Part shown: piece after piece, positions 7,601 through 54,687 of the stretch
Numbering within the stretch: position 1 is the stretch's first letter
Layout: each line of letters starts with the position of its first letter
Origin: TPA_inf: Saccharomyces
Lineage: Eukaryota
Direction: 5' to 3'
Assembly (NCBI GenBank): GCA_000146045.2
Contig: BK006944.2
Location: 96,001-160,000, forward strand
Length of the DNA stretch: 64,000 nucleotides
Notes under the pieces: generated by a model
What the model was told of the DNA's origin: nothing
The model's database searches: none
The model's input: the letters and a program-made list of their open reading frames with translations, nothing else
Translations under genes and position numbers: made by a program

Positions 7601-10600
7601 TGAAGCTATTGAAAAAGTATTTAATGCTTATCCTGCCGCTAGGGAACAGTTCTTGAATGCGCAAGATATTGATCACTTTTTGAGCATGTGTCAAAATCCA
7701 ATGCAAAAACCAGTGCCTTTTGTTCCAGTTTTGGATCGTAGATTCGAGATTTTTTTCAAAAAAGATTCGTTATGGCAATCTGAGCACTTGGAAGCCGTCG
7801 TCGACCAAGACGTTCAAAGAACATGTATCCTACATGGACCTGTTGCAGCACAATTCACTAAAGTCATCGATGAACCAATTAAGAGCATTATGGATGGTAT
7901 TCACGATGGTCACATCAAAAAGTTACTACATCAATATTACGGTGACGATGAGTCAAAGATTCCAGCAGTTGAGTACTTTGGTGGTGAAAGCCCTGTAGAC
8001 GTACAAAGTCAAGTTGATTCTTCCTCTGTATCTGAAGACTCAGCTGTTTTTAAGGCAACATCCTCTACTGATGAAGAAAGCTGGTTTAAGGCTTTGGCGG
8101 GATCCGAAATTAACTGGAGACATGCAAGTTTCTTATGTTCCTTTATCACTCAAGATAAAATGTTTGTTTCTAACCCAATTAGAAAAGTTTTCAAGCCAAG
8201 CCAAGGAATGGTTGTTGAGATTTCCAACGGCAATACTTCTTCAAAGACTGTTGTCACTCTTTCAGAACCTGTTCAAGGTGAATTGAAACCAACTGTTATT
8301 TTGAAGTTGTTGAAGGAGAACATAATCCAAATGGAAATGATTGAGAACAGAACTATGGATGGTAAGCCCGTCAGCTTGCCATTGTTGTACAACTTCAACC
8401 CAGATAATGGTTTTGCTCCAATCTCTGAAGTTATGGAGGACAGAAACCAAAGAATTAAGGAAATGTACTGGAAATTATGGATTGATGAGCCTTTCAATTT
8501 GGACTTTGACCCAAGAGATGTCATTAAGGGCAAAGATTTCGAGATCACCGCTAAAGAAGTTTATGACTTTACACACGCTGTTGGAAACAATTGTGAAGAC
8601 TTCGTTTCTAGACCTGATAGAACGATGTTGGCCCCAATGGACTTTGCTATTGTTGTCGGATGGAGAGCCATCATCAAGGCCATTTTCCCTAATACGGTCG
8701 ATGGTGACTTATTGAAGTTGGTTCATTTGTCTAACGGCTACAAGATGATTCCTGGCGCTAAGCCACTGCAAGTTGGTGATGTTGTTTCAACTACTGCTGT
8801 TATTGAATCTGTCGTCAACCAACCTACAGGAAAGATTGTCGATGTGGTAGGTACATTATCGAGAAATGGCAAGCCTGTCATGGAAGTCACCTCCTCATTC
8901 TTCTACAGAGGCAACTATACTGACTTTGAAAACACTTTCCAAAAGACTGTTGAACCTGTTTATCAAATGCACATCAAAACTTCTAAAGATATAGCTGTCT
9001 TGCGCTCTAAGGAGTGGTTCCAATTGGACGATGAAGACTTCGATCTGTTAAACAAAACTTTGACTTTCGAAACTGAAACTGAAGTTACTTTCAAGAATGC
9101 TAACATCTTCTCTTCAGTGAAATGTTTTGGCCCAATTAAAGTTGAATTGCCAACCAAAGAAACCGTGGAGATCGGTATTGTCGATTACGAAGCCGGTGCC
9201 TCTCACGGTAACCCTGTTGTTGATTTCTTGAAGAGAAACGGTTCCACATTGGAACAAAAGGTCAATCTAGAAAATCCTATTCCAATTGCAGTACTTGATT
9301 CGTACACTCCAAGTACCAACGAACCATACGCTAGAGTTTCTGGTGATTTGAATCCAATTCACGTTTCACGTCATTTTGCCTCTTACGCAAACTTGCCAGG
9401 TACTATCACGCACGGTATGTTTTCTTCTGCTTCCGTCCGTGCTTTGATTGAAAACTGGGCTGCTGACAGTGTTTCATCCAGGGTACGTGGCTACACTTGT
9501 CAATTTGTTGACATGGTTTTGCCTAACACTGCTTTGAAAACATCGATTCAACATGTTGGTATGATCAATGGTAGAAAATTGATAAAGTTTGAAACTAGAA
9601 ATGAAGATGACGTTGTAGTTTTGACTGGTGAAGCCGAAATTGAACAACCTGTTACTACCTTCGTTTTCACTGGTCAAGGTTCACAAGAACAAGGTATGGG
9701 TATGGACTTATACAAAACTTCTAAAGCTGCTCAAGATGTTTGGAATAGAGCTGACAACCATTTCAAGGACACTTATGGTTTCTCTATCTTAGACATTGTC
9801 ATTAACAACCCAGTTAACTTAACAATTCACTTCGGTGGTGAAAAGGGTAAGAGGATCAGAGAAAACTATTCTGCTATGATCTTTGAGACTATCGTGGATG
9901 GAAAATTGAAGACTGAAAAAATTTTCAAGGAAATTAATGAGCACAGTACTTCTTACACATTTAGATCTGAAAAAGGTTTATTGTCTGCTACTCAATTTAC
10001 ACAACCAGCTTTAACTTTGATGGAAAAAGCTGCTTTCGAAGACTTGAAATCTAAAGGTTTGATCCCAGCCGATGCTACTTTTGCTGGTCACTCTTTAGGT
10101 GAGTATGCTGCTTTGGCCTCTTTGGCTGATGTTATGTCTATCGAATCTTTAGTTGAAGTTGTGTTCTACAGAGGTATGACTATGCAAGTTGCTGTTCCAA
10201 GAGATGAGTTGGGCAGATCCAACTATGGTATGATTGCCATTAACCCAGGTAGAGTCGCTGCATCATTCTCTCAAGAAGCTTTGCAATATGTTGTTGAGAG
10301 AGTTGGTAAGAGAACCGGCTGGTTGGTTGAAATCGTCAACTACAACGTTGAAAACCAACAATATGTTGCAGCTGGTGATCTAAGAGCTTTAGACACCGTT
10401 ACCAATGTTCTAAACTTCATCAAATTACAAAAAATTGATATTATTGAACTACAAAAGTCCTTATCTTTGGAAGAAGTTGAAGGTCATTTGTTTGAGATCA
10501 TTGACGAAGCTTCCAAGAAATCTGCTGTCAAGCCTCGCCCACTTAAATTGGAGAGAGGTTTTGCTTGTATCCCATTAGTTGGTATTTCTGTTCCTTTCCA

Positions 10601-11315: not shown

Positions 11316-12599
11316 ATGCGTAAGTGTAAAATTTTTGTTGGTAACTCTCACCCAGAGTTGGGTAATATGGTTTGCCAAAGATTAGGTATCGAACCAGCTC
11401 CATGTACATTAAAAAAATTTGCAAATGGTGAAACGTCAGTTCAAATCGGTGTATCTGTTCGTGACGAAGATGTGTATGTCATTCAATCTGGTTCTCCATC
11501 CATAAATGATGACATTATGGAACTGTTGATTTTAGTTTCTGCCTGTAGGGGCGGATCTGCTAGGAAAATTACAGCAGTCATTCCTCAATTTCCTTACTCT
11601 AAACAATGTAAAATGAAGAGACACAGAGGCGCTATTACTGCAAGGATGTTGGCCAATCTGTTGGTCATGGCTGGCGCTGATCATGTTGTGTCTATGGACC
11701 TTCATGCTTCTCAAATGCAGGGGTTTTTCACCAAACCAGTCGATAACCTATACGGGGGCCCTAGTTTAGCGAAATGGATTAGAGAAAATGTTGAAGACTA
11801 TGAAGATGCAGTAGTTGTCTCTAAGAATCCAGGTGGTACTAAAAGAGTTACAGCCCTGGCGGATTCTTTGAAGATCAACTTTGCTATGATCCATACTGAT
11901 CGTCGTCGTTCTAAGGATCTGTATTCTCAAAACAAGGATTTGCAACAACTAAAGTTGAGAAAGCAATCAATGTTGAGGAAAAATAGACCGATCATCAGAC
12001 AAGGTGACCATCCAAATGAGGAGGAAAACATTATTTTAAGTAACGGTATTCAAACTGCTAGGATCCGTAACGGCCACGTTATCGGTGACGATGAGGCAGA
12101 CGATGATGAAGACGCTATCTTAGAATCTGACAGCGAATTGCATTCTATTGATGGCTTAGACTCGCATGGCTTGGGCGGTACATATGATGCTGTCGACTCC
12201 GAAGACGAAGAGGAAATCCCAGTTCTCTATAGGGAACAACTGATTACATTGGTCGGAAACGTCCGTGGTCGCTCTGCCATCATTCTAGATGATATGATTG
12301 ATAGACCTGGGTCATTTATTAGCGCTGCTGAACATTTGGTGCAAAATTGTGGTGCCAAAAAGGTTTATGTTGTTGCTACTCACGGTATATTCACTGGAGA
12401 CTGTTTGGAAGAACTTGAAAAGTCCGATGCCATTGACACAATTGTGGTCACAAATACATATCCGATTTCTGGCGAACGCATAGCTGGGTCCAAGAAATTG
12501 GTTACTATCGATGTTTCTCCAATTTTCGCAGAATGTATCCGTCGTGATCATTATGGTGAGAGTATTTCCGTTTTATTTGACTCTTTGGCAGCTCTGTAA
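11316..12599 (+). CDS. PRS1: PRPP synthetase subunit 1, 427 aa, with the non-homologous NHR insertion.
   Basis: Ribose-phosphate pyrophosphokinase N- and C-terminal halves are split by a roughly 100-aa acidic insert (DDEADDDEDAILESDSE...), which is characteristic of yeast Prs1. Confidence 0.95.
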   Translation: MRKCKIFVGNSHPELGNMVCQRLGIEPAPCTLKKFANGETSVQIGVSVRDEDVYVIQSGSPSINDDIMELLILVSACRGGSARKITAVIPQFPYSKQCKMKRHRGAITARMLANLLVMAGADHVVSMDLHASQMQGFFTKPVDNLYGGPSLAKWIRENVEDYEDAVVVSKNPGGTKRVTALADSLKINFAMIHTDRRRSKDLYSQNKDLQQLKLRKQSMLRKNRPIIRQGDHPNEEENIILSNGIQTARIRNGHVIGDDEADDDEDAILESDSELHSIDGLDSHGLGGTYDAVDSEDEEEIPVLYREQLITLVGNVRGRSAIILDDMIDRPGSFISAAEHLVQNCGAKKVYVVATHGIFTGDCLEELEKSDAIDTIVVTNTYPISGERIAGSKKLVTIDVSPIFAECIRRDHYGESISVLFDSLAAL

Positions 12600-13268: not shown

Positions 13269-13577
13269 ATGGCTAGATACGGTGCTACTTCCACTAACCC
13301 TGCTAAATCCGCTTCTGCTCGTGGTTCCTACTTGCGTGTTTCTTTCAAGAACACCAGAGAAACTGCTCAAGCTATTAACGGTTGGGAATTGACCAAGGCT
13401 CAAAAATACTTGGAACAAGTTTTGGACCACCAAAGAGCTATTCCTTTCAGAAGATTTAACTCTTCCATCGGTAGAACTGCTCAAGGTAAGGAATTTGGTG
13501 TCACCAAGGCTAGATGGCCAGCTAAGTCTGTTAAGTTCGTTCAAGGTTTGTTGCAAAACGCCGCTGCCAACGCTGAA
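13269..13577 (+). CDS. RPL17A: Ribosomal protein L17A (uL22), exon 1 (codons 1-103).
   Basis: ORF begins MARYGATSTNPAK.... The reading frame runs into GTATGT at 13578, giving the read-through VCQEYYMFSTR* in the track ORF. Confidence 0.93.
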
Positions 13578-13883
13578 GTATGTCAAGAATATTATATGTT
13601 TAGTACCAGATGAAACAAGAATGAGTTGAAATTCAAAATGCGCGGAAAATCCATTATGATCAAGGGAAATTGAATATGATAAATGAATTATTCAGAAAGT
13701 CACAATTACCAGATTGGAATGAACTGTCAAGCTGAAAAGCAACTAAGGATTACCATTACGTGTTTATGATTTTGTTAGAAAAATATTGAAAACTTGATAT
13801 TTCTTTCCGCTAGTTTCATCTTTTTCAATTACTTAACCGGATCAAAATTTTTTTTACTAACAACATAACTATTTTTATTACAG

Positions 13884-14129
13884 GCTAAAGGTTTGGATGC
13901 TACTAAATTGTACGTTTCTCATATCCAAGTTAACCAAGCTCCAAAGCAAAGAAGAAGAACTTACAGAGCTCACGGTAGAATCAACAAGTACGAATCTTCT
14001 CCATCCCACATTGAATTAGTTGTCACTGAAAAGGAAGAAGCTGTCGCCAAGGCTGCTGAAAAGAAGGTCGTTAGATTGACTTCTAGACAAAGAGGTAGAA
14101 TCGCCGCCCAAAAGCGTATTGCTGCTTAA
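13884..14129 (+). CDS. RPL17A: Ribosomal protein L17A, exon 2 (81 codons plus stop). The intron is 13578..13883 (306 nt) with GTATGT...TACTAAC...CAG; total 184 aa.
   Basis: TTTTTTACTAAC branch point about 28 nt upstream of the TTACAG acceptor. Exon 2 ([15 protein letters not shown]...) joins in frame; 103+81=184 aa equals the known length. Confidence 0.9.
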
Positions 14130-35287: not shown

Positions 35288-37492
35288 TTATGTGGAATCA
35301 TATATTAGGCAGCAATTCGTACTTTTCATCCACTGCATATCTAAAAGTTTGCCAACAGAAATCCTTTTTCTTGGTTCCCATTGAAAGATGCGATATAATG
35401 CGATTTTTCTATTTGTGGCCAACTCTGAGTTTACGTGCTTTAATTCTTCGAATACCCTAAACTGGTTTTTACGCTGCATTTCCTTGTAAAATTCATCATA
35501 AGACATATCTTTTTCTCTCGAAGCTACTTTCCAAAGATAATGCCCCAATATCATTGTTATATAAACAACGCCACAACTCCAACAGTCAATCAGTCTTGGA
35601 TCGTAATACTCCCCATCAACAAACTCTTCTGGAGCTACGTAAGGCTCTGATCCAATTATACCCTTTTGAGCATGAACCCTCCTTTCCCAAGCGGTTTGAA
35701 ATACAGAACTTGTACCGAAGTCACATATTTTCAATAGACCATGCGGATAAAAGAGAATATTTTCAGGTTTTAAATCACAATGAGCGATACCATGATCATG
35801 CATGAACTTAACACCATGAAGCAGTTGCTTCATGAAACAATCGGCTTCTAACGGATGTAATCGGCCCTTTAATTTCGACTTACCGACCAGCATACCATAA
35901 AGGTCACCAGCAGGGCAAAATTCCATTACTTCAATAAACGAAGAACTGTCTTCTAGAATATCAAATACGTTTAGAATATTGGGGGCTGGTTTTTTACCAT
36001 TTTTGTGGTAGTGGCTCAAGGAATGCCCAATAATAAACTCAGAGGTGATCTTTGTACAGAACTTCTCTAAATCACTGTCTGGTTTGGGTTTCAATTCTTT
36101 CACAGCATAGTATATGTATTTGCTATCATGATATGTTTCAAATGGGGGGGAGTCCTTTTCATTCCGTAGTCTGGCACACAGCTTAACTTCACCGTAAGCT
36201 CCAGCGCCAACGAGACCAACAGGATGGCCATAATTATCTTGAAAAGTAGGTGCTTGCTCGCCGATACACTCAGCCGGTTTTAGATTTTTTTCTTGCAAAT
36301 AATTTTGTAAACTTTTATGAATTCTGCTTGATAATGAATTAATCAACTTCAACTCATCACTGCCCAATGATGCGTCGGGATTCACTATTTTTAGATAATC
36401 TTCCCTTCCTTGCGTGGGCGAGCTGCGGTTGCTATCGTTAGGACTTTGACCGGTTCTTTTCTCATGGTTTGTCTGAGATTTTTCTACGTTTGGCAGAAGA
36501 GATAAAGCGTTTTCAATATCGCATTCATTTTTATGATGTTTGAATAGACCAGAAAGAGTAATACCTAATCTTGGTCTAGATAATGATCCCTGTCGATGTG
36601 CCGGTAAGGAGTTACCTTTCTCTAATTTCGCAATTACCCCTGATAACTTTATATTATGTTCATGACTTCCGTCTTCGTAAACTTTGAAGCCATTTTGCTC
36701 AATTATACATTGCACATCTGCTCCTGCAAATCGAGGCAAGCTCTCCAAACTTTCTTCATCTGGATGTGACCTCCTGGTGTATAACCTTTCATTATAGAAT
36801 TGCTTGGAGGGGAGAGGATTTGGATATGATGTTGCTCTGCGTAAAGCCTTCTTATTGTAGTCATCTATGTAATTATACGGCGCCCGGTCTTTACTTTTCA
36901 GTATATCTTTGTTCGAGCCACGATAAGGTGTGAGGTCATTGTCTGAATCATCTAGTAAAGAATCCATAGCCCATTGACTGTCTGATGAACTTGTCGTTCC
37001 ATTTGAACTGTCACATGACGAAACAGATGAACTTCTTGAACGTGGACGCCGTATGCCATGAAAAGTATGAGAAGCAGATCTTTTGTATTCTGGTAAACTG
37101 TTAACAATTTCCTGTTCTTCCCCAGATATAGAGCGATGTCTGGTAGGACTATTACTAGCACCACTTCCTGTCTGTCTAAATGGATGTGACAGGCCCGGGG
37201 TGCAACACTTCAATGTATAACTACGCTGGCGTATTGGAGAATTTTTTGGATCTAAAATTTGTGCGGATACGGTTGATCGTCTTGGTGGCTCAGAGCTTCT
37301 CTTGGGTGAGGTAGAAGACGATCGATAAGGAATTCGGGTGACATTAATAGGACTTGAATCTCTTGAACGAGGCGGCCTGAAAAGGTTTTTAAAGGACTCA
37401 GAAAATGACCTTACTCTTCTTGTCACAGGTTGTTGCCGCTTCTTCTCCTCCTGCATTACCATTGATGCTGTCAATGTTTTTGAGTCCATCAT
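35288..37492 (-). CDS. KKQ8: Putative Ser/Thr protein kinase, Hal5 paralogue. Start assigned to the first ATG (734 aa); the in-frame ATG at 37462 (M11) would give a 724-aa product.
   Basis: Ser-rich N-terminal half, then a kinase domain with [19 protein letters not shown] and GSEPYVAPE motifs. Which ATG is used cannot be decided from sequence. Confidence 0.88.
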   Translation of the reverse strand: MMDSKTLTASMVMQEEKKRQQPVTRRVRSFSESFKNLFRPPRSRDSSPINVTRIPYRSSSTSPKRSSEPPRRSTVSAQILDPKNSPIRQRSYTLKCCTPGLSHPFRQTGSGASNSPTRHRSISGEEQEIVNSLPEYKRSASHTFHGIRRPRSRSSSVSSCDSSNGTTSSSDSQWAMDSLLDDSDNDLTPYRGSNKDILKSKDRAPYNYIDDYNKKALRRATSYPNPLPSKQFYNERLYTRRSHPDEESLESLPRFAGADVQCIIEQNGFKVYEDGSHEHNIKLSGVIAKLEKGNSLPAHRQGSLSRPRLGITLSGLFKHHKNECDIENALSLLPNVEKSQTNHEKRTGQSPNDSNRSSPTQGREDYLKIVNPDASLGSDELKLINSLSSRIHKSLQNYLQEKNLKPAECIGEQAPTFQDNYGHPVGLVGAGAYGEVKLCARLRNEKDSPPFETYHDSKYIYYAVKELKPKPDSDLEKFCTKITSEFIIGHSLSHYHKNGKKPAPNILNVFDILEDSSSFIEVMEFCPAGDLYGMLVGKSKLKGRLHPLEADCFMKQLLHGVKFMHDHGIAHCDLKPENILFYPHGLLKICDFGTSSVFQTAWERRVHAQKGIIGSEPYVAPEEFVDGEYYDPRLIDCWSCGVVYITMILGHYLWKVASREKDMSYDEFYKEMQRKNQFRVFEELKHVNSELATNRKIALYRIFQWEPRKRISVGKLLDMQWMKSTNCCLIYDST

Positions 37493-38508: not shown

Positions 38509-39705
38509 TTAAAATTCTTTCATTAAATCCATATATGGATCCTCCCCTTGAATTCCATAGTTGAATTCCTCTTCAGGGTATCTGTCAAATTGAGAAGTGT
38601 CACCTTGGCCCTGTTGGATTGGTGGTTCGTACGGCGTTTCTATGTATCTTGCTAACAATTTCTCCCATATCACTTCGTTAAACCACGGATGGTTCTTGAC
38701 ATCTTCACTTCCATTTTGTAAGTTACCCAACCTTTCACTTAAGTCTCTGGTAATTAGCTTCTTCAATAAGTCCTGCGCGTCTGGATGGAAAAATGGTGGG
38801 AACTTCAATTCGGCGTTCAGTATATTTTCGTAAGTTTTCATGGTGTTCGAATTGTAAAATGGAGTGTATCCGGCAAGCATTTCATAGATTAGCACACCAA
38901 AACTCCACCAATCCACTGATTTATTATACGGTTTTGTACTGACCACTTCCGGCGCTATGTAATCTGGTGTGCCACATAATGTGTATGTGACATCGGGAAC
39001 GTATTTTGCGAAGCCAAAGTCGGTTATCTTGATATGGCCGTTTTTATCTAGAAGGATATTTTCTGGTTTCAAGTCTCTATATATTATATCCTTACTGTGC
39101 AAATATTCCAACGCTAAGCATACCTCTGCGGCATAAAATTTGGCTACTGGGTTGGGAAATCTTTGAGATTTACGTAGTAAAGAAAATAATTCACCACCTT
39201 CAATGTAGTCCATTACCATGAAAACTTGCTGAGAATCTTGGAACGTTCCCCACATTCGAATGATGAATGGATGTGAAACAATTGAAAGCATTCGGCGTTC
39301 GTCATTGGTGTGTTCAACCTGCTTCAGCTTCACTATAGTGTGCTTTTTCAATGTCTTCAAAGCGTAAAACCTCCCATTGTGATTGGAACGAATTAGGTGA
39401 ACTCTCCCAAATGAGCCAGTTCCCAAAGTTCTTAAAATCTGAAAGTCACTTAGGGAATACTTTCCTGAGGTATCTCTATATTGTAGCATTGGTTTTTTAA
39501 CCAAACAAATACCTGCAGACGCTTCTTCTTTCAACTTTCCGCTGTTTCTTCCATTTATCTCCACGGGTGTGTTGGAAGAACATTCCTCATGCACCGAATG
39601 TGCGTTTACAGGAATGTCTTGTCCAACGTTATCTGGAGTTGTTTCTGTCTTGGCAGTAATGCTTAATTTCCTGATTTCATTGTTGTTCATCGGATCAACA
39701 TACAT
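38509..39705 (-). CDS. TPK3: cAMP-dependent protein kinase catalytic subunit 3, 398 aa. The track ORF is extended 10 codons by a TTG start.
   Basis: AGC kinase: GTGSFGRV glycine loop, [22 protein letters not shown] and a C-terminal FxxF. N-terminus [14 protein letters not shown]. Confidence 0.95.
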
Positions 39706-40085
39706 TTTGTGCAGGCTCGCTCTTTCCTTGTACAACCACCGATATACAATATGATTAATGTATTATTCAATAATATACGTGAAACTTTCTTATTGCTTAA
39801 AGAGTGATCGCCTATAAATTTTCTCCGACGACTGCACAAAGTGTCTCGTATGTCCACTCGAGTTTCTTACCGATAGAAGTAATAAAGCAGACAAAACTTT
39901 TAAGATCAGCTGGTAAAAAGTGTCTTTTCTTTCCATATTCTCATTGAACACAACTTTATTTTTCAATGGCATCGAAGAAATCCCGTAGCTGAAGCAACGG
40001 AAAAAAAATACCGGAAACTGCATAATGAGGCTATTCACTAAAAAGAAAGTGGTTCACCAGTATGCGTCGGAAACGTCATATAAAT

Positions 40086-41931: not shown

Positions 41932-44691
41932 CTATTGTGTTTTTTTGGTTTTATCCTGTATGATGACATTTTTTAGCAACACATGACCGAGTACTTCCAA
42001 AATAAGCATGAACAAAGATGATAGGATCGCCAAACAATAGTTGGAAATGGTTATGCCAATATCCAACCACGACCCCTCCGTTCTTAAAAGGTAGAAAAAA
42101 TTCAACGACAGAATATCACTCATGGAAATAATTAATGATGAGATTGTGTAGTCCTTGAAGTTAAGTTTTAAATTCAGTATACCTAGGCATGTGGACAATA
42201 GCCCGTAGGGAATTATCAATTTCAACATCAATAATGCGCCCATCAGGAAAGGATCAAAAATTGGCAACAATCTACAAACAGACTCCAATGAAAATGAAGA
42301 GATTGAAGCGACGTTACCAGTTCCAAAGAATGCGACTTGAAGTAAAAAGAACCCGATTACTGAAACTCTTAGCACTTGTAACCAATTTTCATCTTTTTGG
42401 GTCTTCATTTCTTTGATTTTGTTCTCAATTTCAATCCATTGTACCATGTAACTAGTGAACAAGAAGTAGAAAAGGGATTCGAATGATATAGTCAAAATGA
42501 TAAAGGATGGTGCGAAGGTTAAATAAATGATCAATAATCTCACTTTGTAATCATTGTTGGGCTTCCTATAATGTAAAATTGGCATTACAAAAAGAGATAC
42601 AAAAAAAATTATCCATCCAGCGACCTGTGACTCTCTTGGTAACCCTTGTCTTAGCTGTAAAGAGATAACTGAACGATGAGTAACCGCCAACATGGCAGCC
42701 ACCAAGGAAATTTGAATGGCAAATATAGCACGCGTGTAGGAATTTATCCTGGAATGTATTTTGTAAAGAGCATAAAAGGCACTGAGAATGATTAATAACC
42801 CTGCTAGATGTATCTGGTTCAAGTCCTCAATTTTAACAGCGTCAAATAAGGTAAATGTAGATAAAAGAACACTAGTTATGATCCACAATATATTCACGGA
42901 TAGCTCTCTCACCCCACAAATAAACGGGTAAAACGCCAATATATTTGTAATTAGCGTAAACGTCCATCTATGGAAAAATCCATATACAATTCCCTCATAA
43001 ACTGATATAATAGAGATTGTTATTAAAACTCTTTTCCAAGGAGAGGTACCTTTGAAGAATTCCTTGATACCTGAACGTAGTACGGATCTATTTGTAAAAA
43101 TATAGCTCCAAAAGTATAATGGGAAAAGAAGGTACATGTAAAAATTGAACGGAGAATGTTGGTAGAACAAAATCCAATTTAGTAAAATTCCTATGGAACC
43201 AAATACTGCATGGCTTAATGGTGACGCTTTTTGGTCATCAATTACATTCTCTAATATGAATGATTTCAAAAATATTATAAAAGAAAAAAAGATCCACCCA
43301 ACAAACCCAAATGTAACAATAGTTCTAATGAATCTCCAATTATAGGTTGTCAAATAATGTAAACCTTCCAATGTTATCTGCATTAATTCCTCTGTAAGGG
43401 TGATTGCTTCTTGTTCCAAATAGTTTTCTCCTTCAGATATACGCTGAATTAAGGTTTCTATCTCTTCTAAGTAATGTGAATGAGACTTTTCAACAAACTT
43501 GAAGTATTCCTTATAAAAAAATTGAGAGTCTATTACCTCATCTTGCTTGACTAAGTACTGCTCTAAAATGCTTCTTGCGTTGTTGTACAATGCGGCAAGC
43601 TTGTCACTTTCTTTTCCATCGATATATGCTATTGGTAACTCACCAACTGAATTTTTAGGATAGTTCACACCAATCAAGTATGACATTAAAGAAGCAATAT
43701 CTGCTTGCTTGACATCATTTCTTTTAATGCTCGAAAGCTCCCAATTTTCAGTATAGTTGTCGGATACCGGAAAAGGATTATGTACTGGTTTATTCAAACC
43801 CGCACCCCAAGCAACAAGAGGGGTCCTTGTGTTGTTAGGATGACCGTCACCATGTGATCCAAATGCACTCATACCATGATCTGCTGTAAAAATAAATGCG
43901 GTTTTGTCGTCCGCAAAAAACTTGTTGACTTTGTCTATAAGGATAGGGATTTGATCATCAATATATTTGACATTGTCATAATACTCGGCAGAATATGGTC
44001 TATAAGAATGTCCGGCAGTATCGCAACCTAGTAGATGTAGAAAGAATACATTACCGTCTTGCCTAATTTCATAATCCAATGTTGAGTTCAGTGTGGAATT
44101 GTGGAATAATTGATCCAAGTGTCTAAAGACAAAAGCATCCAGCTCGATGGAAGATTGCGTAAAATCCTCGAAAGTATGATCATACATCCAAGTGTCAACT
44201 TTATTTGGGTCAGAAGCGCCATCTTTGAACATAGGTAAAATGTCAGGTGAACCGAATGAATAAGTATGAGTAGATTGGTTGAAAAAACTATCGAAATTGA
44301 CAGGGTTTGACTTCCAACCTTTTGTGACGGCACTAACATCTTCGTAAAACCCAGCAATCATAGCAACATGACCAGGACGGGATTCAGTTGGCATTCTGGT
44401 ATGTGATATACCGTAGGTGGCATTATTCATTACCAAAGATCTAATAAAAGGTGCCAGAAATTCTGTTTTTCCGGATACTGGATGAGTGACTTTATCAAAA
44501 GTGGTATCTGCACGTAAACCATCACCGACAATCAAAAACAATCTCTTTGCAGGAGGGGTTGGAGTACTTTGATATGGGCTCATACCATGAACGAGCGGTG
44601 AAATGAAATAGATATCAAAAATAGACCATAGGTAAAATAAATGAAATAAGACACCAACAGCCAGAAGCGTCGTTCTGGTTTTGTTCCACAT
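41932..44691 (-). CDS. MCD4: GPI-anchor mannose-ethanolamine phosphotransferase (PIG-N homologue), 919 aa.
   Basis: N-terminal alkaline-phosphatase/sulfatase-like luminal domain followed by more than ten transmembrane segments; 919 aa. Confidence 0.95.
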   Translation of the reverse strand: MWNKTRTTLLAVGVLFHLFYLWSIFDIYFISPLVHGMSPYQSTPTPPAKRLFLIVGDGLRADTTFDKVTHPVSGKTEFLAPFIRSLVMNNATYGISHTRMPTESRPGHVAMIAGFYEDVSAVTKGWKSNPVNFDSFFNQSTHTYSFGSPDILPMFKDGASDPNKVDTWMYDHTFEDFTQSSIELDAFVFRHLDQLFHNSTLNSTLDYEIRQDGNVFFLHLLGCDTAGHSYRPYSAEYYDNVKYIDDQIPILIDKVNKFFADDKTAFIFTADHGMSAFGSHGDGHPNNTRTPLVAWGAGLNKPVHNPFPVSDNYTENWELSSIKRNDVKQADIASLMSYLIGVNYPKNSVGELPIAYIDGKESDKLAALYNNARSILEQYLVKQDEVIDSQFFYKEYFKFVEKSHSHYLEEIETLIQRISEGENYLEQEAITLTEELMQITLEGLHYLTTYNWRFIRTIVTFGFVGWIFFSFIIFLKSFILENVIDDQKASPLSHAVFGSIGILLNWILFYQHSPFNFYMYLLFPLYFWSYIFTNRSVLRSGIKEFFKGTSPWKRVLITISIISVYEGIVYGFFHRWTFTLITNILAFYPFICGVRELSVNILWIITSVLLSTFTLFDAVKIEDLNQIHLAGLLIILSAFYALYKIHSRINSYTRAIFAIQISLVAAMLAVTHRSVISLQLRQGLPRESQVAGWIIFFVSLFVMPILHYRKPNNDYKVRLLIIYLTFAPSFIILTISFESLFYFLFTSYMVQWIEIENKIKEMKTQKDENWLQVLRVSVIGFFLLQVAFFGTGNVASISSFSLESVCRLLPIFDPFLMGALLMLKLIIPYGLLSTCLGILNLKLNFKDYTISSLIISMSDILSLNFFYLLRTEGSWLDIGITISNYCLAILSSLFMLILEVLGHVLLKNVIIQDKTKKTQ

Positions 44692-45793: not shown

Positions 45794-46819
45794 TTAACAG
45801 TTGAGCAAATCGATAGCTTGTAGGTGGACTGCATTACATTGAGTTCCAATGTGCTCATCGTATAAGTTGTAGAAGTTTCCTGACAAACATTGGTAAAAAG
45901 TATCCTGGTCACCGATGGCCAAGTTACCTTCTGGGGTGATGGACCAACCAGCAGCATAGATAGCACCAGCTTGTGGTGGAGGACCATCGAATTGGAATTG
46001 TCTGTTGGCAACGATAGAACCAATTCTACCTTTACCGTCAGTCAGGATACCACCCTTTAAGTTCATTTCTAAAGTGCCACTGCTTTTACATGTTTCAGCA
46101 GTTACTGGGTCAGTGCCATTAGTAATTGGAGCTGGAGCTGGAGATGGTATAATGGTTGCAGAAGTTAAAGTTGTGGCTTGGATTTGGCCATCAGTGATTT
46201 GGGAGACTGGAGCAACAGTAGTATTGGTGGTGGCTTGGATTTGACCGTCACCAATTTGAGAAACAGCAGCAGCAGTGGTTTTAGTAGTGGCTTGGATTTG
46301 ACCGTCACCAATTTGAGAGACAGCTGCAGCAGTTGTTTTGGTAGTGGCTTGGATTTGACCGTCACCAATTTGAGAGACAGCAGCAGCTTTGGTTTTAGTA
46401 GTGGCTTGAATTTGACCGTCACCAATTTGGGAGACGGCTGCAGCGGTAGTCTTAGCTGAGGTAGTCTTGGTGGTGGCTTGGATTTGGCCGTCACCAATTT
46501 GAGAGACAGCAGCAGCTTTGGTTTTAGTAGTGGCTTGGATTTGACCGTCACCAATTTGAGAAACAGCAGCAGCAGTGGTTTTGGTAGTGGCTTGGATTTG
46601 ACCGTCACCAATTTGAGAGATAGCAGCGGCTCTCTTAGCCTTGGAGGAAGCAGTAGTGGCAATTGGTTCAACAGCAATACCGAAAGTAGAAGAGTAATCA
46701 GTTATACCACCCTTGTAAGTAGCTGATGGAGTTAAAGTGGACCACGGGTCCTTTGGAGCATAGGCAGCTAAAGATGTAGCAACTAAGGCGGAGGCAACTA
46801 ATGATTTTTTGTATTGCAT
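45794..46819 (-). CDS. PIR1: PIR-family O-mannosylated cell-wall protein (alkali-extractable, beta-1,3-glucan-linked), 341 aa.
   Basis: Signal peptide, Kex2 site (SKAKR), eight tandem approx. 19-aa PIR repeats ([14 protein letters not shown]) and the conserved four-Cys C-terminal domain. Confidence 0.95.
46160..46650. repeat. Tandem 57-bp coding repeats (PIR units) inside PIR1, eight copies.
   Basis: ggcttggatttgaccgtcaccaatttgagagacagcagcagc... repeated head-to-tail. This explains the alternative-frame ORFs 46165..46677(-), 46178..46459(+) and 46478..46726(+). Confidence 0.9.
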
Positions 46820-48400
46820 TTTCTAGAATATACTATTAGGGGAGTTTTGTAGTTTGTTTTTTTTTAATACCAGTGTATTAACTTTTGTTTTCTTGATGAT
46901 ATTATTCTTATACAGTAATAGAGAAGATAGGACAACTATGCATAAAGTAGTAAAGATCTTGCTCCTTTTTATATGTGAGAATTGTAGCATTACGATCTTC
47001 TTATTGAAAGAATAATTAGTATACCAGCGTTCTAATATTTGGGCAGGAGAGATTGACTGGACACAGTCTAAACCCTTTCAGATACATGGGCTAAATGATG
47101 GTCCATCGTATTATTAAAGCAAGTAATCGAGCTCCAAGAAGGATTTACGTCCGCCATCTCAATTTCTTTTATTAGCGTTGCTTCTATAATTGGCAGGACA
47201 TAAAAAGGCTGCTAATAATAAATGATGATATAATTAAGAGCAAGCTGGCCGATCTCTCCATTTTTATGCGCTCCAAGCCACGTCATTTTCCGATGACAGG
47301 AATGCTTTGCATATTTCATATGAGATATACATTGACTCCTTTTCGACCAACCGTTTCATTAAAGGGGCAGCAGCTGTCAAAAAAGTAGCCGAAAAAGGCG
47401 TCTGGCTTCGAGGAATTATTACCTAAATAGGAAAGGCAGAATATATTAGAAAAAAAAGAAAAACCAAATGAGAAAAGTGCTGGTGCTAAATAAAACATTA
47501 TTGAGGGGCCAAGAGGGGACAAAAGAAGATATAACTAGATCATTAAGTTTTCGCTCTAGTAACAGGAACAAAGATTGTGAGATACACTGTTATGCTAAGA
47601 GACGGTGCGATATTCTGTACGAAAATTATTTAACTATTAACTAAATGTATACCACTTCACGTGCCACCGAGTAGGTTTCTAAAATGTGCAACCATTTTAG
47701 GTATGTGCGCAGCTCTTTATTCTAAACGGGAGTCACTACATTACTATTATCGTGTTTTTGCCCATGTACTTTCTTATAATCTTAAGACAACAACGGGATG
47801 ATAGGCGCATTCGGACTTTCATTGATGCAAATGTGTGAAAAATGCATCCAAAAGACAACTTTTGTACAGAATACAATTGCAAAAATACTTTACGGGCATA
47901 GATCGGTAAGGTCACCGGGAAGCTAGCGTAAGAGACCTTATTCGGAACCGAGCAACCATTTCCGAATGTAGTAGTAGTTGAAGGAGTAAATCGACCTTAT
48001 TGTACACTACTTCCTTTAAATTTGATTTCTGGCCCCGCGCAATTTCTTGGCGGTTAAGCTGTATTTTTACCTCATCGGGAAAAGTTATTGCAAGTTAAAG
48101 GGGATCAAACGATTAGCAAACTAATTATAGATCAAAGGCCGAGGGCTTTCTAAATTTGGCATATTTCGCCGTCGACTGAAATAGAAGGGATAAATCATGC
48201 ATCTCCAGGATTATCCCTACTCCATTCATTACAACATGCGCCAAATCAAGCCTATATAAGATTCTCGTCATTTAGCATGCTCTATTGATTTGTGTCTTGT
48301 TTTGTCTAACACTGAAACTGTAACCTAAGATTTCTTTAGATAATTATTACATTTACATCAATAAGAAATCTCATAAAACAAGTACTGTTTATAAGTAAAA

Positions 48401-49378
48401 ATGCAATATAAAAAGCCATTAGTCGTCTCCGCTTTAGCTGCTACATCTTTAGCTGCCTATGCTCCAAAGGACCCGTGGTCCACTTTAACTCCATCAGCTA
48501 CTTACAAGGGTGGTATAACAGATTACTCTTCGAGTTTCGGTATTGCTATTGAAGCCGTGGCTACCAGTGCTTCCTCCGTCGCCTCATCTAAAGCAAAGAG
48601 AGCCGCCTCTCAGATAGGTGATGGTCAAGTACAGGCTGCCACTACTACTGCTGCTGTTTCTAAGAAATCCACCGCTGCTGCTGTTTCTCAAATAACTGAC
48701 GGTCAAGTTCAAGCTGCTAAGTCTACTGCCGCTGCTGTTTCCCAAATAACTGACGGTCAAGTTCAAGCTGCTAAGTCTACTGCCGCTGCCGTTTCTCAAA
48801 TAACTGACGGTCAAGTTCAAGCTGCTAAGTCTACTGCCGCTGCCGTTTCTCAAATAACTGATGGTCAAGTTCAAGCTGCCAAGTCTACTGCTGCCGCTGC
48901 CTCTCAGATTTCTGACGGCCAAGTTCAGGCCACTACCTCTACTAAGGCTGCTGCATCCCAAATTACAGATGGGCAGATACAAGCATCTAAAACTACCAGT
49001 GGCGCTAGTCAAGTAAGTGATGGCCAAGTCCAGGCTACTGCTGAAGTGAAAGACGCTAACGATCCAGTCGATGTTGTTTCCTGTAATAACAATAGTACCT
49101 TGTCAATGAGTTTAAGCAAGGGTATCTTAACCGATAGGAAGGGTAGAATTGGCTCTATCGTTGCCAACAGACAGTTCCAATTCGATGGTCCTCCACCACA
49201 AGCTGGTGCTATCTATGCTGCTGGTTGGTCCATCACCCCAGAAGGTAACTTAGCTCTTGGTGACCAGGATACTTTTTACCAATGTTTGTCTGGTGACTTC
49301 TATAACTTGTATGATAAGCACATTGGTTCTCAGTGCCATGAAGTTTATTTGCAAGCTATAGATTTAATTGACTGTTGA
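48401..49378 (+). CDS. PIR3: PIR-family cell-wall protein, 325 aa.
   Basis: Same architecture as PIR1: signal peptide, KR site, about 8 PIR repeats ([14 protein letters not shown]), Cys-rich C-terminal domain. Divergently oriented to PIR1. Confidence 0.95.
48590..49030. repeat. Tandem 54-57-bp PIR coding repeats inside PIR3. Four central copies are nearly identical at the nucleotide level.
   Basis: gctgctgtttc(c/t)caaataactgacggtcaagttcaagctgctaagtctactgcc recurs four times in succession. Confidence 0.9.
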
Positions 49379-50004
49379 ACGATGCATCGATCAATCGGAG
49401 TCGTCCTCCTTTAACTTCACGAATTAGTTGCCACTCTCATTCCCCACACATAAACTTGTTTTATGGCATCCTTTTCATTTAGCATGTCTTTATTTCCAAA
49501 CCTTTCCTCGTTCTTTGCATTCATTTAGCGTTTGCTCGAGAAAGCATCACGTTTTCACACATTATCGTTCGTCGCTATAATAAAAATAGTTATAGAATTT
49601 ACTCAGATTTACATGTCGTACCTTTTTAATTGTAAAAAAAAAAATTTTATGATACATAATTACCTAAATATAATTCAGAATCAAACATACTTATAGCTAT
49701 TTGTATGCTATTAGGTGGTCCTGCTATAAAAATATCGTTTATAATACTTTATATTTTATCTTTCAACTTAGTCGCAATTGCAGAAGCTTTCCCTGAGAAA
49801 AAATTTGTGAAGCTAGCTGCGATAGCAAAGGAGCGCTTAAGGTATAGAAAAGCACTCAGCTGGAATGCCAAAAGATAGTTTAGCAACTGACCAAGGAAAA
49901 AGCTTGTAGGTAGACTTAACTTCATTGTTCTCTAATCCTTTCGTCGTGTATATTGTAAAAACTGCTGAACGAGTATTGATAAAAGATATCTTGGCCACTA
50001 AGGG

Positions 50005-50610
50005 GCAGATCCCCTTCTGGTGTGATAGACAACCCCAGGAGCATAGATAACACCAACTTGTGGTGGAGGGTCATCGAATTGGAATTGTCTGTTGGCAACA
50101 GTAGAACAGATGCTGCCCTTGCTATCTGTCAAAATGCCGCTCTTCAAAGTTACTTTCAAAGCGCTGTCACTGCTACGACAGCTTTTTTTTTAGAAACAGC
50201 AGCAATGCCTTGACATGTAACGTAAGAAAAGAAAAAAGAGATGGCAGAAGAAATACTAAGCGATAACGGCAATGTAGAGGTGCTTTTTTTATCGGAATAA
50301 ATAGAGAAGTCAGTAACAGTGATTGCTGTGGCTCCCTCTTTAATCGTATCTATGTAGGTTCCGATTAAAGTGGTCGTGATTCAGTATTTTTTTTACTAAT
50401 CAAAGTACATGCACTGTTTTTTGTGGGGATAGCAATGATTTCAATTTGGCCGTCAACGATCTAAGAAAAAACGTCTCTCTTAACCGTGGTAGATCCTGTT
50501 GTAATTGTTTGGACAGTGATACCGAAGAAGGAAGTAAATTCAGTAGCGCCGCATGAGGTAGTAGCAGAAGGAGTTAAGGTTGACCATGGCTCACTTGGCA
50601 TATACTGTTG
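50005..50610 (-). pseudogene. Decayed PIR-family gene relic (third PIR paralogue). N-terminal mature region, a single PIR-repeat remnant and the Cys-rich C-terminal domain are recognisable, but with stops, frameshifts and loss of both ends.
   Basis: 50005..50190 aligns at the DNA level with the minus strand of the PIR1/PIR3 C-terminal domain (GGTGGAGG.TCATCGAATTGGAATTGTCTGTTGGCAAC). 50440..50610 aligns with the N-terminal mature region plus one repeat (TTGGCCGTCAACGAT...GATACCGAAGAAGGAAGTAAATTCAGTAGC). No intact ORF exists. Confidence 0.7.
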
Positions 50611-51629
50611 GGCAGAAACAGTATAGTGAAACTGTTATCAAACCAATATATTTGGGCTACATGGCTTTCCTTTCCCGAAAAAGACACCATTTAGTAATTA
50701 TGTTGTACTTTTACTCTCTGAACTTCTGTGAATATAAAAAATATACTAAATAAAAGGATGCAACTTCCTTAAAGAGGGCAAGATAGCGACATAAAGTGGA
50801 AAAGTGTTAGCAACATTGCGCAGGCATCGATTAATATATGCATATATACTTTTTACGTAGTCTACGTTAAATTGTCAATAGATCAAGCAGAATCGGTAGC
50901 TCTGTTAAGCGATTAAGCCCAGTGGCTTTTTGTCGCACCGTTTAGGTTCGCGTTAGCAAGATGGAAAAAAAAGAACGCGAATCATGTATTGACGTATGAC
51001 GTATTAGGCAATTTACAAGATTAAACTTAAATTTGCGACGGAGTTTTGAAGTAGAACGAACACCTTACTCATCCGCAACAGGAAATTTTCACGCAGAACG
51101 TGCCTAAGAAAAAAAAATCATATGCGTTTACAGGCACAAATGAAGAAAATGACCGGATATGGATATAAGCTTATGGAAGAAATTGCTCCTATTGAGTTAA
51201 GAATATGCGAGCGAGACCTGCATAAGGCTAATTATAACTCTTCAACCCAAATTTGTCTTTCTCTTCACACCCATCTCTTATAGTCCCATATATTCATATG
51301 AAAGTTCAATGCTTAGACTCAGTGTGTACTTATGATGTCGTTGAAGGCTATTTGGTCTACTGAAAATCCTACCTCGTACGAATACCCTTATAGTATTATT
51401 TAAATATGGGGTTACTATTCGCATTCGTTAGAGTGGTGGGAAATTGATATCTTGTTTGGGAGTTGCGAAACAAAAGAGGAGAAGATATGCGCGCTATGTT
51501 TTTCTTAAAAGAATGCCTACTGCCTATGAAATGAATATACTAAACGTAAAAGTGTAGATAATAGAAACAAAGATTAAGGTCGCTTACTGTAAAAAACGTC
51601 TTCATTTTAATTCAACGAAATAAAAGAAA

Positions 51630-52838
51630 TCACGTGGAGTGTAGCACCGCCAAAGAGCTATTTTTTATGTCTTCTAGTTGAGGCCTATTTCCATTCTGCG
51701 ACGAAAGTGTGCTTCTCTCACTTGGGCTAATCCATTTTTCAACAAAATCAGCAACGTCTTCGACTTCGCAGCTACTAGAAGAACTGTTAATACCATTATA
51801 AATGTTCTGTAACTGTAAGAAGTCCGTCATGAAGCATATTCTTCCACTCCGTTTGTCTGAAAATATTGAATCCGAATATGGCTGTACTATCTGGCTAGAT
51901 CCCGTCGGCCGTGGGCTTATTAAACTCTTTAATAACGATATTATTGTTGGGCTCGATCTTTGCGGGGTGTCTACAATGAAAAGTCTATGTTCTGGAATAT
52001 TATTCTTGATTGTCATCAATATCTCAATTAATTTAGTGGGGATATAAAGTTCTTTACCAGGACTTACATGGGATCGATCATTGAACATTTGTTCTAATGC
52101 AAGTTCACATGAGTAGTCAATGGCGCTATCAAAGCTCTTGGATTTTTGTCCATTCTTATTGATATCCACAAAGCACTGTTGCCACCCTTTGTCATCTGAA
52201 GAGTACCTTACTAAATCGTGGGTTGTGTATTTTATAACATCATTAAGCATCAAAATTTGGATTGGATCCTCTATGTGAAATTTTTTCTGTAAAAAATATG
52301 GGGAAACCGGATAATCTTGTACCAAACTGACTGATCCAGGTATTCCGTCTAAGAGCTTCGAAGGTATTTTGTCACACTTGTATAGAGGTACCATGAAATA
52401 TTTTATTTTCTGGAACATGTTATCAGATAAAGTAGACTTGAGATATGACATTAAATTTTTGCAAATCTGAATTGCTTGGGGTAAATCCGTGTAAATATTC
52501 ACAATGTTAAGATCGTAATAAGGATAGTCATTTAATTTGTAATTAACCAGTAGCCATTTGGCAAGGCATTTGCTAAATTGTGGCTCACAGTCAAGAATGT
52601 TATCAAATGAAAAGGGTTCTTCTTTTGCGGTTGTAGTTACAGGCTTCCTTTGCGTAAAAAAATTTTCTCTTTTCATTATGTTTGGGAAATTTTGCCACTC
52701 TATGTAATCTTTCAAAGAAATTCTCGCAGTTTGGCCTCTTCTTATCCCATTTGTAGAGAGTAATTGCTCGAAAGTAAACAGTGGGTAATCAGATTTCAGA
52801 TGAACTTGAATTCTCAAGGGGTGTAATCTTTTCATCAT
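51630..52838 (-). CDS. Uncharacterised protein (YKL162C-like), 402 aa.
   Basis: 402-aa ATG ORF in the position of YKL162C. No recognisable catalytic motifs. Confidence 0.8.
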   Translation of the reverse strand: MMKRLHPLRIQVHLKSDYPLFTFEQLLSTNGIRRGQTARISLKDYIEWQNFPNIMKRENFFTQRKPVTTTAKEEPFSFDNILDCEPQFSKCLAKWLLVNYKLNDYPYYDLNIVNIYTDLPQAIQICKNLMSYLKSTLSDNMFQKIKYFMVPLYKCDKIPSKLLDGIPGSVSLVQDYPVSPYFLQKKFHIEDPIQILMLNDVIKYTTHDLVRYSSDDKGWQQCFVDINKNGQKSKSFDSAIDYSCELALEQMFNDRSHVSPGKELYIPTKLIEILMTIKNNIPEHRLFIVDTPQRSSPTIISLLKSLISPRPTGSSQIVQPYSDSIFSDKRSGRICFMTDFLQLQNIYNGINSSSSSCEVEDVADFVEKWISPSERSTLSSQNGNRPQLEDIKNSSLAVLHST

Positions 52839-53385: not shown

Positions 53386-54687
53386 TTAGTTAACACCCTG
53401 AAATGAATTAGAGCTTATTCCCATAAGGTTTTGATATGGCTGGGTTGTAGTTAGTGATGGAAGTTGGCTTACATAGGAAAATTCAGGACTATAACTGGGT
53501 AAAACTTTCCTAGAAGGATGGACCTGTACAACTTCTTGAGGAATGGCATCCTCTAAAGATAGTGATGATGATGGGGAATCACCGCTAATAGGATGTTTTC
53601 TAACAACTTTCCTGAAATCAAATACTTCCTTTATAACTTCGTTTCCTAATTCCGCCATACTTTCGATATGCTCGAATTCGAATCTAAAGGTCTTTTGACA
53701 TGAGAATTCCTCATCTATATCATGCCACATTGACAAATATGGATGCTCTAGTGCATCCTCTACAGTAATCCTTTTTTTAGGATCAAATTCTAGCATTTTC
53801 TTTAGCAATTCAAGCGCTTCTGGATTAGCACCAGGTAGTATGCTTTCAAACGATCTTCCCGGGATATTACCGAACTGAAAGATATAATTATACACCTTTT
53901 GAGAGGCAATTTCCTGCAATGTTTCCTCAGGTGGTGTTCCAAGTATTTGTAGAATATGATTCAAATGATCTACATAATCCTTCCCTTCAAACATTGGTTT
54001 CCTACCAAGTAGTTCGGCCAAGATACAGCCTGTTGACCAAATATCGACAGCTTTTGTGCATTCTTGATAATTCAGCAAAATTTCTGGTGCTTTATACCAT
54101 ATCGAGGTTATATAACCCTTAATGAAGCCGTCGTTAACCTTGTGGTTTTCTGAATAACTACACGATAGCCCAAAATTACAAATTTTTAGTTGGCAATCAC
54201 TATTAACAAGTAAGTTTTTTGGTTTCAGGTCACAATGTAAAACATTAGCAGAATGTATGTATTTCAGAGCACACAGTATCTGATATATGAAGCTTTGAAA
54301 GTGTGCGTCTTCCAGGCGTTGTTCGGACCTTATAATTTGAGAAAGGTCACATTCCATTAGTTCTTCATATAAATAAACGCCATTTAGTGCCCCATTTGGG
54401 TAAAATACTATATCAGTATCGAAGAGCCACACTATATTTGGGTGCCCTCTTAAATGTCTTAGTAGTTTCAATTCACGAAGAGTTCTCTTGCAAGATAGTT
54501 TATTGCCAAACGCGTTTGGTATTTTTCTGATAGCCACGTGAGTTTCCTCGTTCGATTCTGTGTAAGTTGAAGAACAAATAAGGCTGTGTGAGCCCCGACC
54601 AATCTTACCTGTCAAATGAAAATGTTTATTTAGGATAAAATCTTGGCCGAATGCACGGAAAATACACCTCTCGGTGTCAGTCGCCAT
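53386..54687 (-). CDS. KDX1: MAP-kinase-like protein, Slt2 paralogue (pseudokinase-like), 433 aa.
   Basis: MAPK fold with the VAIK catalytic Lys replaced by Arg (HVAIRKIP) and the activation-loop TEY replaced by KGY (FIKGYITSIWYKAPE); HCDLKPKN and DFGLS motifs are present. Confidence 0.92.
   Translation of the reverse strand: MATDTERCIFRAFGQDFILNKHFHLTGKIGRGSHSLICSSTYTESNEETHVAIRKIPNAFGNKLSCKRTLRELKLLRHLRGHPNIVWLFDTDIVFYPNGALNGVYLYEELMECDLSQIIRSEQRLEDAHFQSFIYQILCALKYIHSANVLHCDLKPKNLLVNSDCQLKICNFGLSCSYSENHKVNDGFIKGYITSIWYKAPEILLNYQECTKAVDIWSTGCILAELLGRKPMFEGKDYVDHLNHILQILGTPPEETLQEIASQKVYNYIFQFGNIPGRSFESILPGANPEALELLKKMLEFDPKKRITVEDALEHPYLSMWHDIDEEFSCQKTFRFEFEHIESMAELGNEVIKEVFDFRKVVRKHPISGDSPSSSLSLEDAIPQEVVQVHPSRKVLPSYSPEFSYVSQLPSLTTTQPYQNLMGISSNSFQGVN

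Follow-up and report, generated by a model that had tools for sequence, protein, structure and literature searches.

A PIR gene cluster with a degenerate third member

We analyzed a window of 64,000 nucleotides from the left arm of Saccharomyces cerevisiae chromosome XI (contig BK006944.2 of assembly GCA_000146045.2, positions 96,001 to 160,000 of the forward strand), in which two intact genes of the PIR family of cell-wall proteins, PIR1 and PIR3, lie beside a degenerate third copy, the relic, for which the gene name PIR6 was adopted from the literature. A tblastn search with the N- and C-domains of CIS3 uncovered exactly three PIR units in the window. The initial annotation had assigned the cluster to 45794-50610; all three units are found there, but the relic extends to 50662, about 50 bp farther on its 5' side. 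The members of the cluster, and an annotated open reading frame (ORF) within the relic, are as follows (coordinates refer to the window):

45794-46819, minus strand: PIR1 (YKL164C), 341 amino acids (aa), from the ORF listing, with eight PF00399 domains and PF22799 in Pfam
48401-49378, plus strand: PIR3 (YKL163W), 325 aa, eight PIR repeats and the same architecture as PIR1 (PIR1-like_C), from the ORF listing and Pfam
49880-50662, minus strand: PIR6 pseudogene (the relic), 783 bp, full length from a degenerate ATG to the original TAA, delimited by alignments to intact PIR6
49922-50074, minus strand: YKL162C-A, an annotated 50-codon ORF within the relic, named by exact-sequence look-up (S288C)

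The minus strand between PIR3 and the next gene, YKL162C, contains no ORF longer than 58 codons, and the three minus-strand frames combined spell a complete PIR gene. The PIR1 protein matches the relic DNA both in the C-domain (E = 8e-26) and in the N-terminal part (E = 3e-13), and the frame-corrected relic matches PF22799, the PIR1-like C-terminal domain, with 67.1 bits (E = 2.4e-18; cut-off 27.6). Colinear DNA alignments were made to the PIR6 genes of S. paradoxus and S. uvarum, and the relic proved colinear end to end with the intact 258-codon S. paradoxus gene, with 75.5% nucleotide identity over 774 aligned bases.

The relic begins with an ATG at 50662, followed by a TAG at codon 2 and a degenerate signal peptide that is broken by a 2-bp deletion. 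Its N-terminal part retains the subunit I block (EPWSTLTP...FGI.VQ.I...VKR) with the VKR Kex2-type site, after which come a single PIR repeat broken by a stop (S*IVDGQIEI), a Ser/Thr-rich middle, and the C-domain. The frame-corrected relic gave no match to the PIR repeat SQI[GT]DGQ[IV]Q (PF00399) at E ≤ 0.01; the aligned position of the repeat is recognisable but broken, which fits a decayed member of the family rather than a working one. Two of the four conserved cysteines of the C-domain are kept (KSC... and ...VSC), YQC has become YQY, and EQC has become EQ* through a TGA codon.

Relative to S. paradoxus PIR6, whose numbering is used for the stop codons, the relic carries four frameshifts (-2 at about 50625, +2 at 50382-50381, -1 at about 50196, and +1 at 50036), two in-frame 3-bp insertions, and five premature stops, namely TAG at codon 2, TAG at codon 68 (inside the repeat), TAA at codon 156, TGA at codon 245 (replacing a conserved Cys), and TAA at codon 247. 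The relic is a full-length unitary pseudogene that decayed in place.

Intact PIR6 in other Saccharomyces species

The best database matches of the frame-corrected relic are the S. uvarum chromosome 11 protein SUVZ_11G0550 (253 aa) and its S. pastorianus/S. eubayanus equivalent (E ~1e-50), and these chromosome 11 PIR6 proteins outrank every CIS3, PIR1, and PIR3 protein in the same search. The amino acid identity between the relic and S. uvarum PIR6 is 46%. With S. uvarum PIR6 as the query, S. kudriavzevii SKDI_11G0580 and S. paradoxus SPAR_K00570 (258 aa) were further recovered and no intact S. cerevisiae copy was found, though the database holds hundreds of S. cerevisiae strain proteomes. PIR6 is thus intact in S. 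paradoxus, S. kudriavzevii, S. uvarum, and S. eubayanus/S. pastorianus. The contigs of the first three of these species display the order MCD4-PIR1-PIR3-PIR6-YKL162C-KDX1, in which PIR1 occupies the same slot as in the window, where it is the cluster member nearest MCD4. The flanking genes of the window that enter into this order are:

41932-44691, minus strand: MCD4 (YKL165C), Pfam PigN, a flanking marker of the sister block described below
51630-52838, minus strand: YKL162C, Methyltransf_28 (Pfam), the first gene past the relic
53386-54687, minus strand: KDX1 kinase, from the ORF listing and Pfam

The annotated start of S. kudriavzevii PIR6 (L010:5985-6744), MSPVAALL..., is probably too short. 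An in-frame ATG lies 15 nt upstream and gives MQLKHMSPVA..., in agreement with the S. uvarum and S. eubayanus proteins, which begin with MQLK.

The annotated ORF YKL162C-A

The first 15 residues of YKL162C-A represent a frameshifted reading and its last 35 the original frame of the PIR6 C-domain, and the ORF is bounded by the +1 frameshift region and by the TGA that replaced the conserved Cys codon. It has been annotated on 163 S. cerevisiae contigs, where it occurs as 12 protein variants, all of 50 aa, with 9 of the 50 positions variable. The lesions that define this 50-codon ORF are therefore widespread in S. cerevisiae. As to the variants themselves, their diversity looks high for a constrained peptide.

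According to Žunar et al. 2023 (Microb Cell Fact 22:174, PMC10483737), YKL162C-A is transcribed in respiring and sporulating (diploid) cells and its signal sequence drives secretion if over-expressed, and no protein was detected from the native promoter. The same paper suggested that YKL162C-A might be a young, S. cerevisiae-specific secreted micropeptide under selection, born of two frameshifts in the relic. Besides the reported transcription and secretion, the length of 50 codons in all 163 annotated contigs speaks for such a peptide, but this constancy is biased by ascertainment, since broken ORFs would go unannotated, and an ORF of 50 codons is ordinary in 783 bp of drifting sequence (the relic also holds one of 53 codons). 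Given in addition the failure to detect the native protein, the residues that differ among strains, and a substitution pattern that is flat over codon positions across the whole relic (see below), we regard a selected micropeptide as unlikely. If it were real, YKL162C-A, with a frameshift-born signal peptide joined to 35 old C-domain residues, would represent the birth of a gene from a duplicate's wreck. We conclude that YKL162C-A is a chance 50-codon ORF in the relic, and in annotation it is best read as a fragment of the 783-bp pseudogene.

The sister locus on chromosome X and the loci of non-duplicated yeasts

According to the literature, the whole-genome duplication in the ancestry of S. 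cerevisiae took place roughly 100 million years (My) ago. The initial annotation had taken the PIR cluster of the window and that of chromosome X for sister regions from this duplication, citing TPK3, KKQ8, and RPL17 as genes of the window, and all three could be located:

38509-39735, minus strand: TPK3 (YKL166C), protein kinase, TPK1 ohnologue, Pfam Pkinase
35288-37492, minus strand: KKQ8-like kinase, from the ORF listing and Pfam
13269-13577 and 13881-14126, plus strand: RPL17, two exons

The chromosome X locus, which was fetched through CIS3 and an HSP150 allele, has the order TPK1-like kinase fragment, YJL163C (major facilitator superfamily [MFS]), JJJ2 (DnaJ), FMP33, PIR5 (YJL160C), HSP150, CIS3, FAR1, SSY5, FBP26, and VPS35. 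As had been proposed, the strands of PIR5, HSP150, and CIS3 alternate in the same manner as those of PIR1 (minus), PIR3 (plus), and the relic (minus). The truncated TPK1-like kinase beside YJL163C and the TPK3 protein of the window are 87% identical.

The single locus of Torulaspora globosa, a non-duplicated yeast, reads VPS35, FBP26, SSY5, FAR1, a CIS3-type gene (plus), two further PIR genes (minus and plus), FMP33-like, JJJ2, MCD4, MFS, and TPK kinase. In tblastn comparisons, its FAR1, FMP33-like, JJJ2, and MFS genes match only the chromosome X locus, and its MCD4 and kinase genes match the window, with 74% identity for MCD4 and 77% for TPK3 against the sole T. globosa kinase, which adjoins the MFS gene. 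Since genes found only at the chromosome X locus and genes of the window are interleaved at this one locus, the chromosome X and chromosome XI regions are sister regions from the whole-genome duplication, as the initial annotation had supposed. Zygosaccharomyces bailii, likewise non-duplicated, has three PIR genes (plus, minus, plus) between FAR1 and FMP33/JJJ2. In both yeasts, therefore, the pre-duplication type of locus holds three PIR genes, not two, in alternating orientation. A third locus, that of Saccharomycodes ludwigii, has one PIR gene within 10 kb after FAR1 and is uninformative on the three-gene cluster.

The minus-plus-minus pattern is symmetric, so that orientation alone cannot tell the two ends of the cluster apart; the flanking genes can. 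Of the three PIR genes of the window, the relic lies at the greatest distance from MCD4/TPK, just as CIS3 does from JJJ2/YJL163C/TPK1 in its own cluster. PIR1 adjoins MCD4/TPK3, that is, the PIR5 end, and the relic lies at the opposite end; by position, therefore, the relic matches CIS3 and not PIR5. It follows from the same arrangement that PIR1 is the positional counterpart of PIR5/YJL160C, and that PIR3, as the middle member of the cluster, is by synteny the positional counterpart of HSP150.

The initial annotation had left open whether CIS3 or YJL160C is the counterpart of the relic, and the symmetry of the strand pattern would indeed accommodate a relic that is the ohnologue of YJL160C/PIR5, with PIR1 as the counterpart of CIS3, if the cluster were inverted relative to chromosome X. 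In T. globosa, however, the CIS3-type gene stands at the FAR1 end and the outer PIR gene at the FMP33-JJJ2-MCD4-TPK end, which is the end that PIR1 occupies in the window, with the relic at the far end. The tree described below, moreover, places the relic with the CIS3-type genes and PIR5 elsewhere. An exact inversion of the three-gene block would thus have to be combined with convergent sequence signatures, which makes this assignment very improbable; the CIS3 half of the original proposal stands, and the YJL160C half is dropped.

In T. globosa, in Z. bailii, and on chromosome X, the CIS3-type gene is followed by FAR1-SSY5-FBP26-VPS35, whereas the relic is followed instead by YKL162C and KDX1. 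At the loci read in T. globosa and Z. bailii, YKL162C is missing and has no counterpart beside FAR1. The sister block shared by chromosomes X and XI appears to end exactly at the relic (window positions 50663-52838 lie beyond it), which points to a rearrangement breakpoint beside the relic.

Two of the loci compared here showed further peculiarities. The model of the Z. bailii CIS3-type gene (L008:10001-12586) covers 2.6 kb for a product of 229 aa; its N-domain maps to 10064-10231 and its C-domain to 12287-12583, and direct translation of the locus does not yield the protein. An intron-like insertion, an expanded repeat, or a gap in the assembly could account for this. In Kazachstania barnettii (L007), a post-duplication species that does not count as evidence on the ancestral state, the chromosome X-type track has three PIR genes (plus, minus, plus) with an extra gene of 177 aa between the second and the third.

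Phylogenetic placement of the relic

A neighbour-joining tree was built from 47 PIR proteins, using the mature N-terminal part and the C-terminal 112 residues, with Ogataea as the outgroup and 300 bootstraps. The relic is sister to S. paradoxus PIR6 (92% bootstrap), and the relic and the four PIR6 proteins are monophyletic (98%). A clade comprising the relic, PIR6, and Saccharomyces CIS3, and excluding PIR1, PIR3, HSP150, and PIR5, was recovered in 260 of the 300 bootstraps (87%). The N-terminal part of the relic bears the CIS3-type signature (SCG..E.T..FGI.VQ.IT, KRDV), and its N-domain is 60% identical to that of CIS3 versus 45-47% to those of PIR1 and PIR3.

The initial annotation had proposed a phylogeny and named a grouping of the relic with PIR1/PIR3, as a recent local duplicate, among the results that would refute it. 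Under this alternative, a local copy of PIR1 or PIR3 would have decayed where it arose, and the resemblance to chromosome X would be coincidental. Two observations would be in keeping with such an origin: tandem PIR genes do exchange sequence, and in the tree PIR1 is joined to PIR3 instead of each to its own ohnologue. Yet the relic grouped with PIR1 or PIR3 in none of the 300 bootstraps, its N-terminal part is of the CIS3 type at the identities just given, it has a single repeat like CIS3, four other Saccharomyces genomes carry an intact orthologue at the same place in the gene order, and three genes were present before the duplication. We therefore give a local duplication hardly any credence.

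Several points weigh against reading the relic as the CIS3 ohnologue. Within the CIS3-type clade, support for the inner nodes is only 15-62%, and genes of pre-duplication species are mixed with those of post-duplication species, the T. globosa and Z. bailii genes not falling cleanly outside. The neighbour-joining tree thus cannot show that the split between PIR6 and CIS3 coincided with the duplication, and the timing of that split therefore rests on synteny. PIR paralogues also swap sequence, which can blur trees, as exemplified by an identical 36-nt tract in S. paradoxus PIR3 and PIR6, and only two non-duplicated genera with a three-gene cluster (Torulaspora and Zygosaccharomyces) were read. 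The function of PIR6 in the other species is assumed from its intact ORFs, and S. paradoxus PIR6 is itself altered at residues that are invariant in all other aligned members. The transcription and the working signal sequence reported for YKL162C-A (PMC10483737) leave the full inertness of the relic unproven. As to the loss itself, the point estimate of omega on the S. cerevisiae branch (given below) is less than 1, so that part of the branch may have been under constraint and the date within it is uncertain. On balance, we consider it highly probable that the relic is the dead whole-genome-duplication ohnologue of CIS3, lost on the S. cerevisiae branch after the S. paradoxus split.

The tract common to the adjacent genes PIR3 (L002:11283-12638) and PIR6 (L002:10001-10777) of this S. 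paradoxus genome is AGAATTGGTTCTATTGTTGCCAACGGACAGTTCCAAT; in ANRQFQFDG, a motif that is invariant otherwise, it gives both genes one and the same Arg-to-Gly change, and it looks like a short gene conversion between neighbours. A related observation is that PIR1 and PIR3 pair together in the tree and not with their positional ohnologues PIR5 and HSP150, and that the two outer T. globosa PIR genes likewise cluster by species. This suggests concerted evolution among neighbouring PIR genes, rapid divergence of PIR5, or both. The pairings of PIR1 with PIR5 and of PIR3 with HSP150 consequently rest on position and not on sequence.

Timing of the loss and constraint on PIR6

The ancestor of S. cerevisiae and S. 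paradoxus was inferred by parsimony with S. kudriavzevii and S. uvarum as outgroups, and changes were assigned to the two branches by codon position, together with the ratio of nonsynonymous to synonymous substitution rates (omega, dN/dS) and its 95% confidence interval (CI):

S. cerevisiae branch (relic): 41, 35, and 31 changes at codon positions 1, 2, and 3; omega 0.75 (95% CI 0.48-1.27)
S. paradoxus branch (PIR6): 12, 13, and 20 changes at codon positions 1, 2, and 3; omega 0.40 (95% CI 0.20-0.89)

A three-taxon dN/dS analysis with S. uvarum as the lone outgroup was also tried and was rejected as too saturated (dS 0.8-0.9) to date the loss.

The identity of 75.5% between the relic and S. 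paradoxus PIR6 is about that of the flanking intergenic DNA (75.4% and 72.5%), and the PIR1-PIR3 promoter region is 85.5% identical. By our own estimate, five stops among ~107 branch-specific substitutions are roughly what unconstrained drift would be expected to produce. The relic has been drifting at about the neutral rate since its loss. As four other Saccharomyces genomes retain PIR6 in intact form, its loss falls on the S. cerevisiae branch and not early after the duplication; the proposal that it was lost on chromosome XI after the duplication is accordingly upheld and narrowed to a late event on that branch only. Within the branch, the near-neutral substitution, the intergenic-like identity, and the wide distribution of the ORF-defining lesions in the species suggest, with a wide CI, that constraint was lost early rather than recently.

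That PIR6 was instead lost early after the duplication, like most ohnologues, so that the relic would be an ancient fossil, might be read from its strong degradation (46% amino acid identity to S. uvarum PIR6), but is close to impossible given the intact syntenic PIR6 genes of S. paradoxus, S. kudriavzevii, S. uvarum, and S. eubayanus/S. pastorianus and a DNA identity to S. paradoxus PIR6 that equals that of neighbouring intergenic DNA, as a fossil 100 My old would be unrecognisable.

Between S. paradoxus and S. uvarum, omega is 0.235 for PIR6, compared with 0.033 and 0.040 for the C-domains of PIR1 and PIR3, 0.036 for MCD4, and 0.113 for YKL162C. PIR6 was the least constrained PIR gene already before its death. 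The alterations of S. paradoxus PIR6 at otherwise invariant residues are WSTLTP to WSNSTP, ANRQFQFDG to ANGQFQSDG, KGRIG to KARIG, and QCLSG to QCSSG, and this gene may be on its way to loss too.

A proposed history and its relation to earlier work

We propose that the pre-duplication ancestor had a single alternating cluster of three PIR genes (a CIS3-type, a middle, and an outer gene) between FAR1 and FMP33-JJJ2-MCD4-YJL163C-TPK. The duplication would have turned it into two clusters, CIS3/HSP150/PIR5 on chromosome X and PIR6/PIR3/PIR1 on chromosome XI, and all six genes would have survived most of the roughly 100 My that followed. After the S. paradoxus split, PIR6 would have lost its function on the S. 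cerevisiae lineage, a loss that redundancy with CIS3 may have made tolerable. Approximately neutral drift would then have gathered the four frameshifts and five stops in a relic that is still full length and in place.

The assignment of the relic as the CIS3 counterpart is already published (PMC10483737), and the present work confirms it and adds quantitative detail. Žunar et al. described Pir1/Pir5 and Pir3/Hsp150 as duplication pairs and Cis3 as being without a live partner, with the homologous chromosome XI locus encoding Ykl162c-a, "a Pir6 remnant"; they reported that Pir6, which the other species of Saccharomyces keep intact, disappeared from S. cerevisiae within about 5 My, and they suggested domestication as the driver (PMC10483737). 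Locus and assignment are the same in the two studies. The focus of that paper is the 50-codon ORF with the 35 residues at its C terminus. The present analysis delimits the entire gene body of 783 bp, lists all lesions, and adds the three-gene cluster in two non-duplicated genera, rate estimates that indicate near-neutral drift over most of the S. cerevisiae branch, and the generally weak constraint on PIR6. A link between domestication and the loss finds no support in the rates or in the shared lesions. A literature search turned up no earlier mention of this locus among "gene relics".

The relic resembles CIS3/PIR4 (YJL158C) in its N-terminal subunit with a cysteine (SCG), its Kex2-type KR followed by D-V, its single PIR repeat, its Ser/Thr-rich linker, its PIR1-like C-terminal domain, and its position and orientation in the sister cluster; unlike CIS3, it cannot encode a protein, and two of the four C-domain cysteines are gone. 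Intact PIR6, for its part, evolves much faster than the C-domains of PIR1 and PIR3 (omega 0.235 versus 0.03-0.04). As in other yeast gene relics and unitary pseudogenes, the decay is non-processed and in place, with stops and frameshifts, and a paralogue survives. In contrast to typical ohnologue losses, which are early and traceless, this one is late and lineage-specific, which is why the relic is still full length and alignable. The locus thereby identifies both the paralogue that decayed (the CIS3 twin) and the branch of the loss (S. cerevisiae), and makes a textbook case of a three-gene cluster that was duplicated whole, whose six copies were kept for most of ~100 My, and of which one was lost in a single species.

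Repeat arrays of PIR1 and PIR3

The PIR repeat arrays lie at window positions 46100-46700 and 48600-49000, and the number of repeats varies greatly from one S. cerevisiae strain to another, the alleles in the database ranging from 241 to 398 aa for PIR1 and from 191 to 325 aa for PIR3. The repeats also give rise, as a mechanical by-product, to long antisense ORFs of 170 aa and 147 aa across the arrays.

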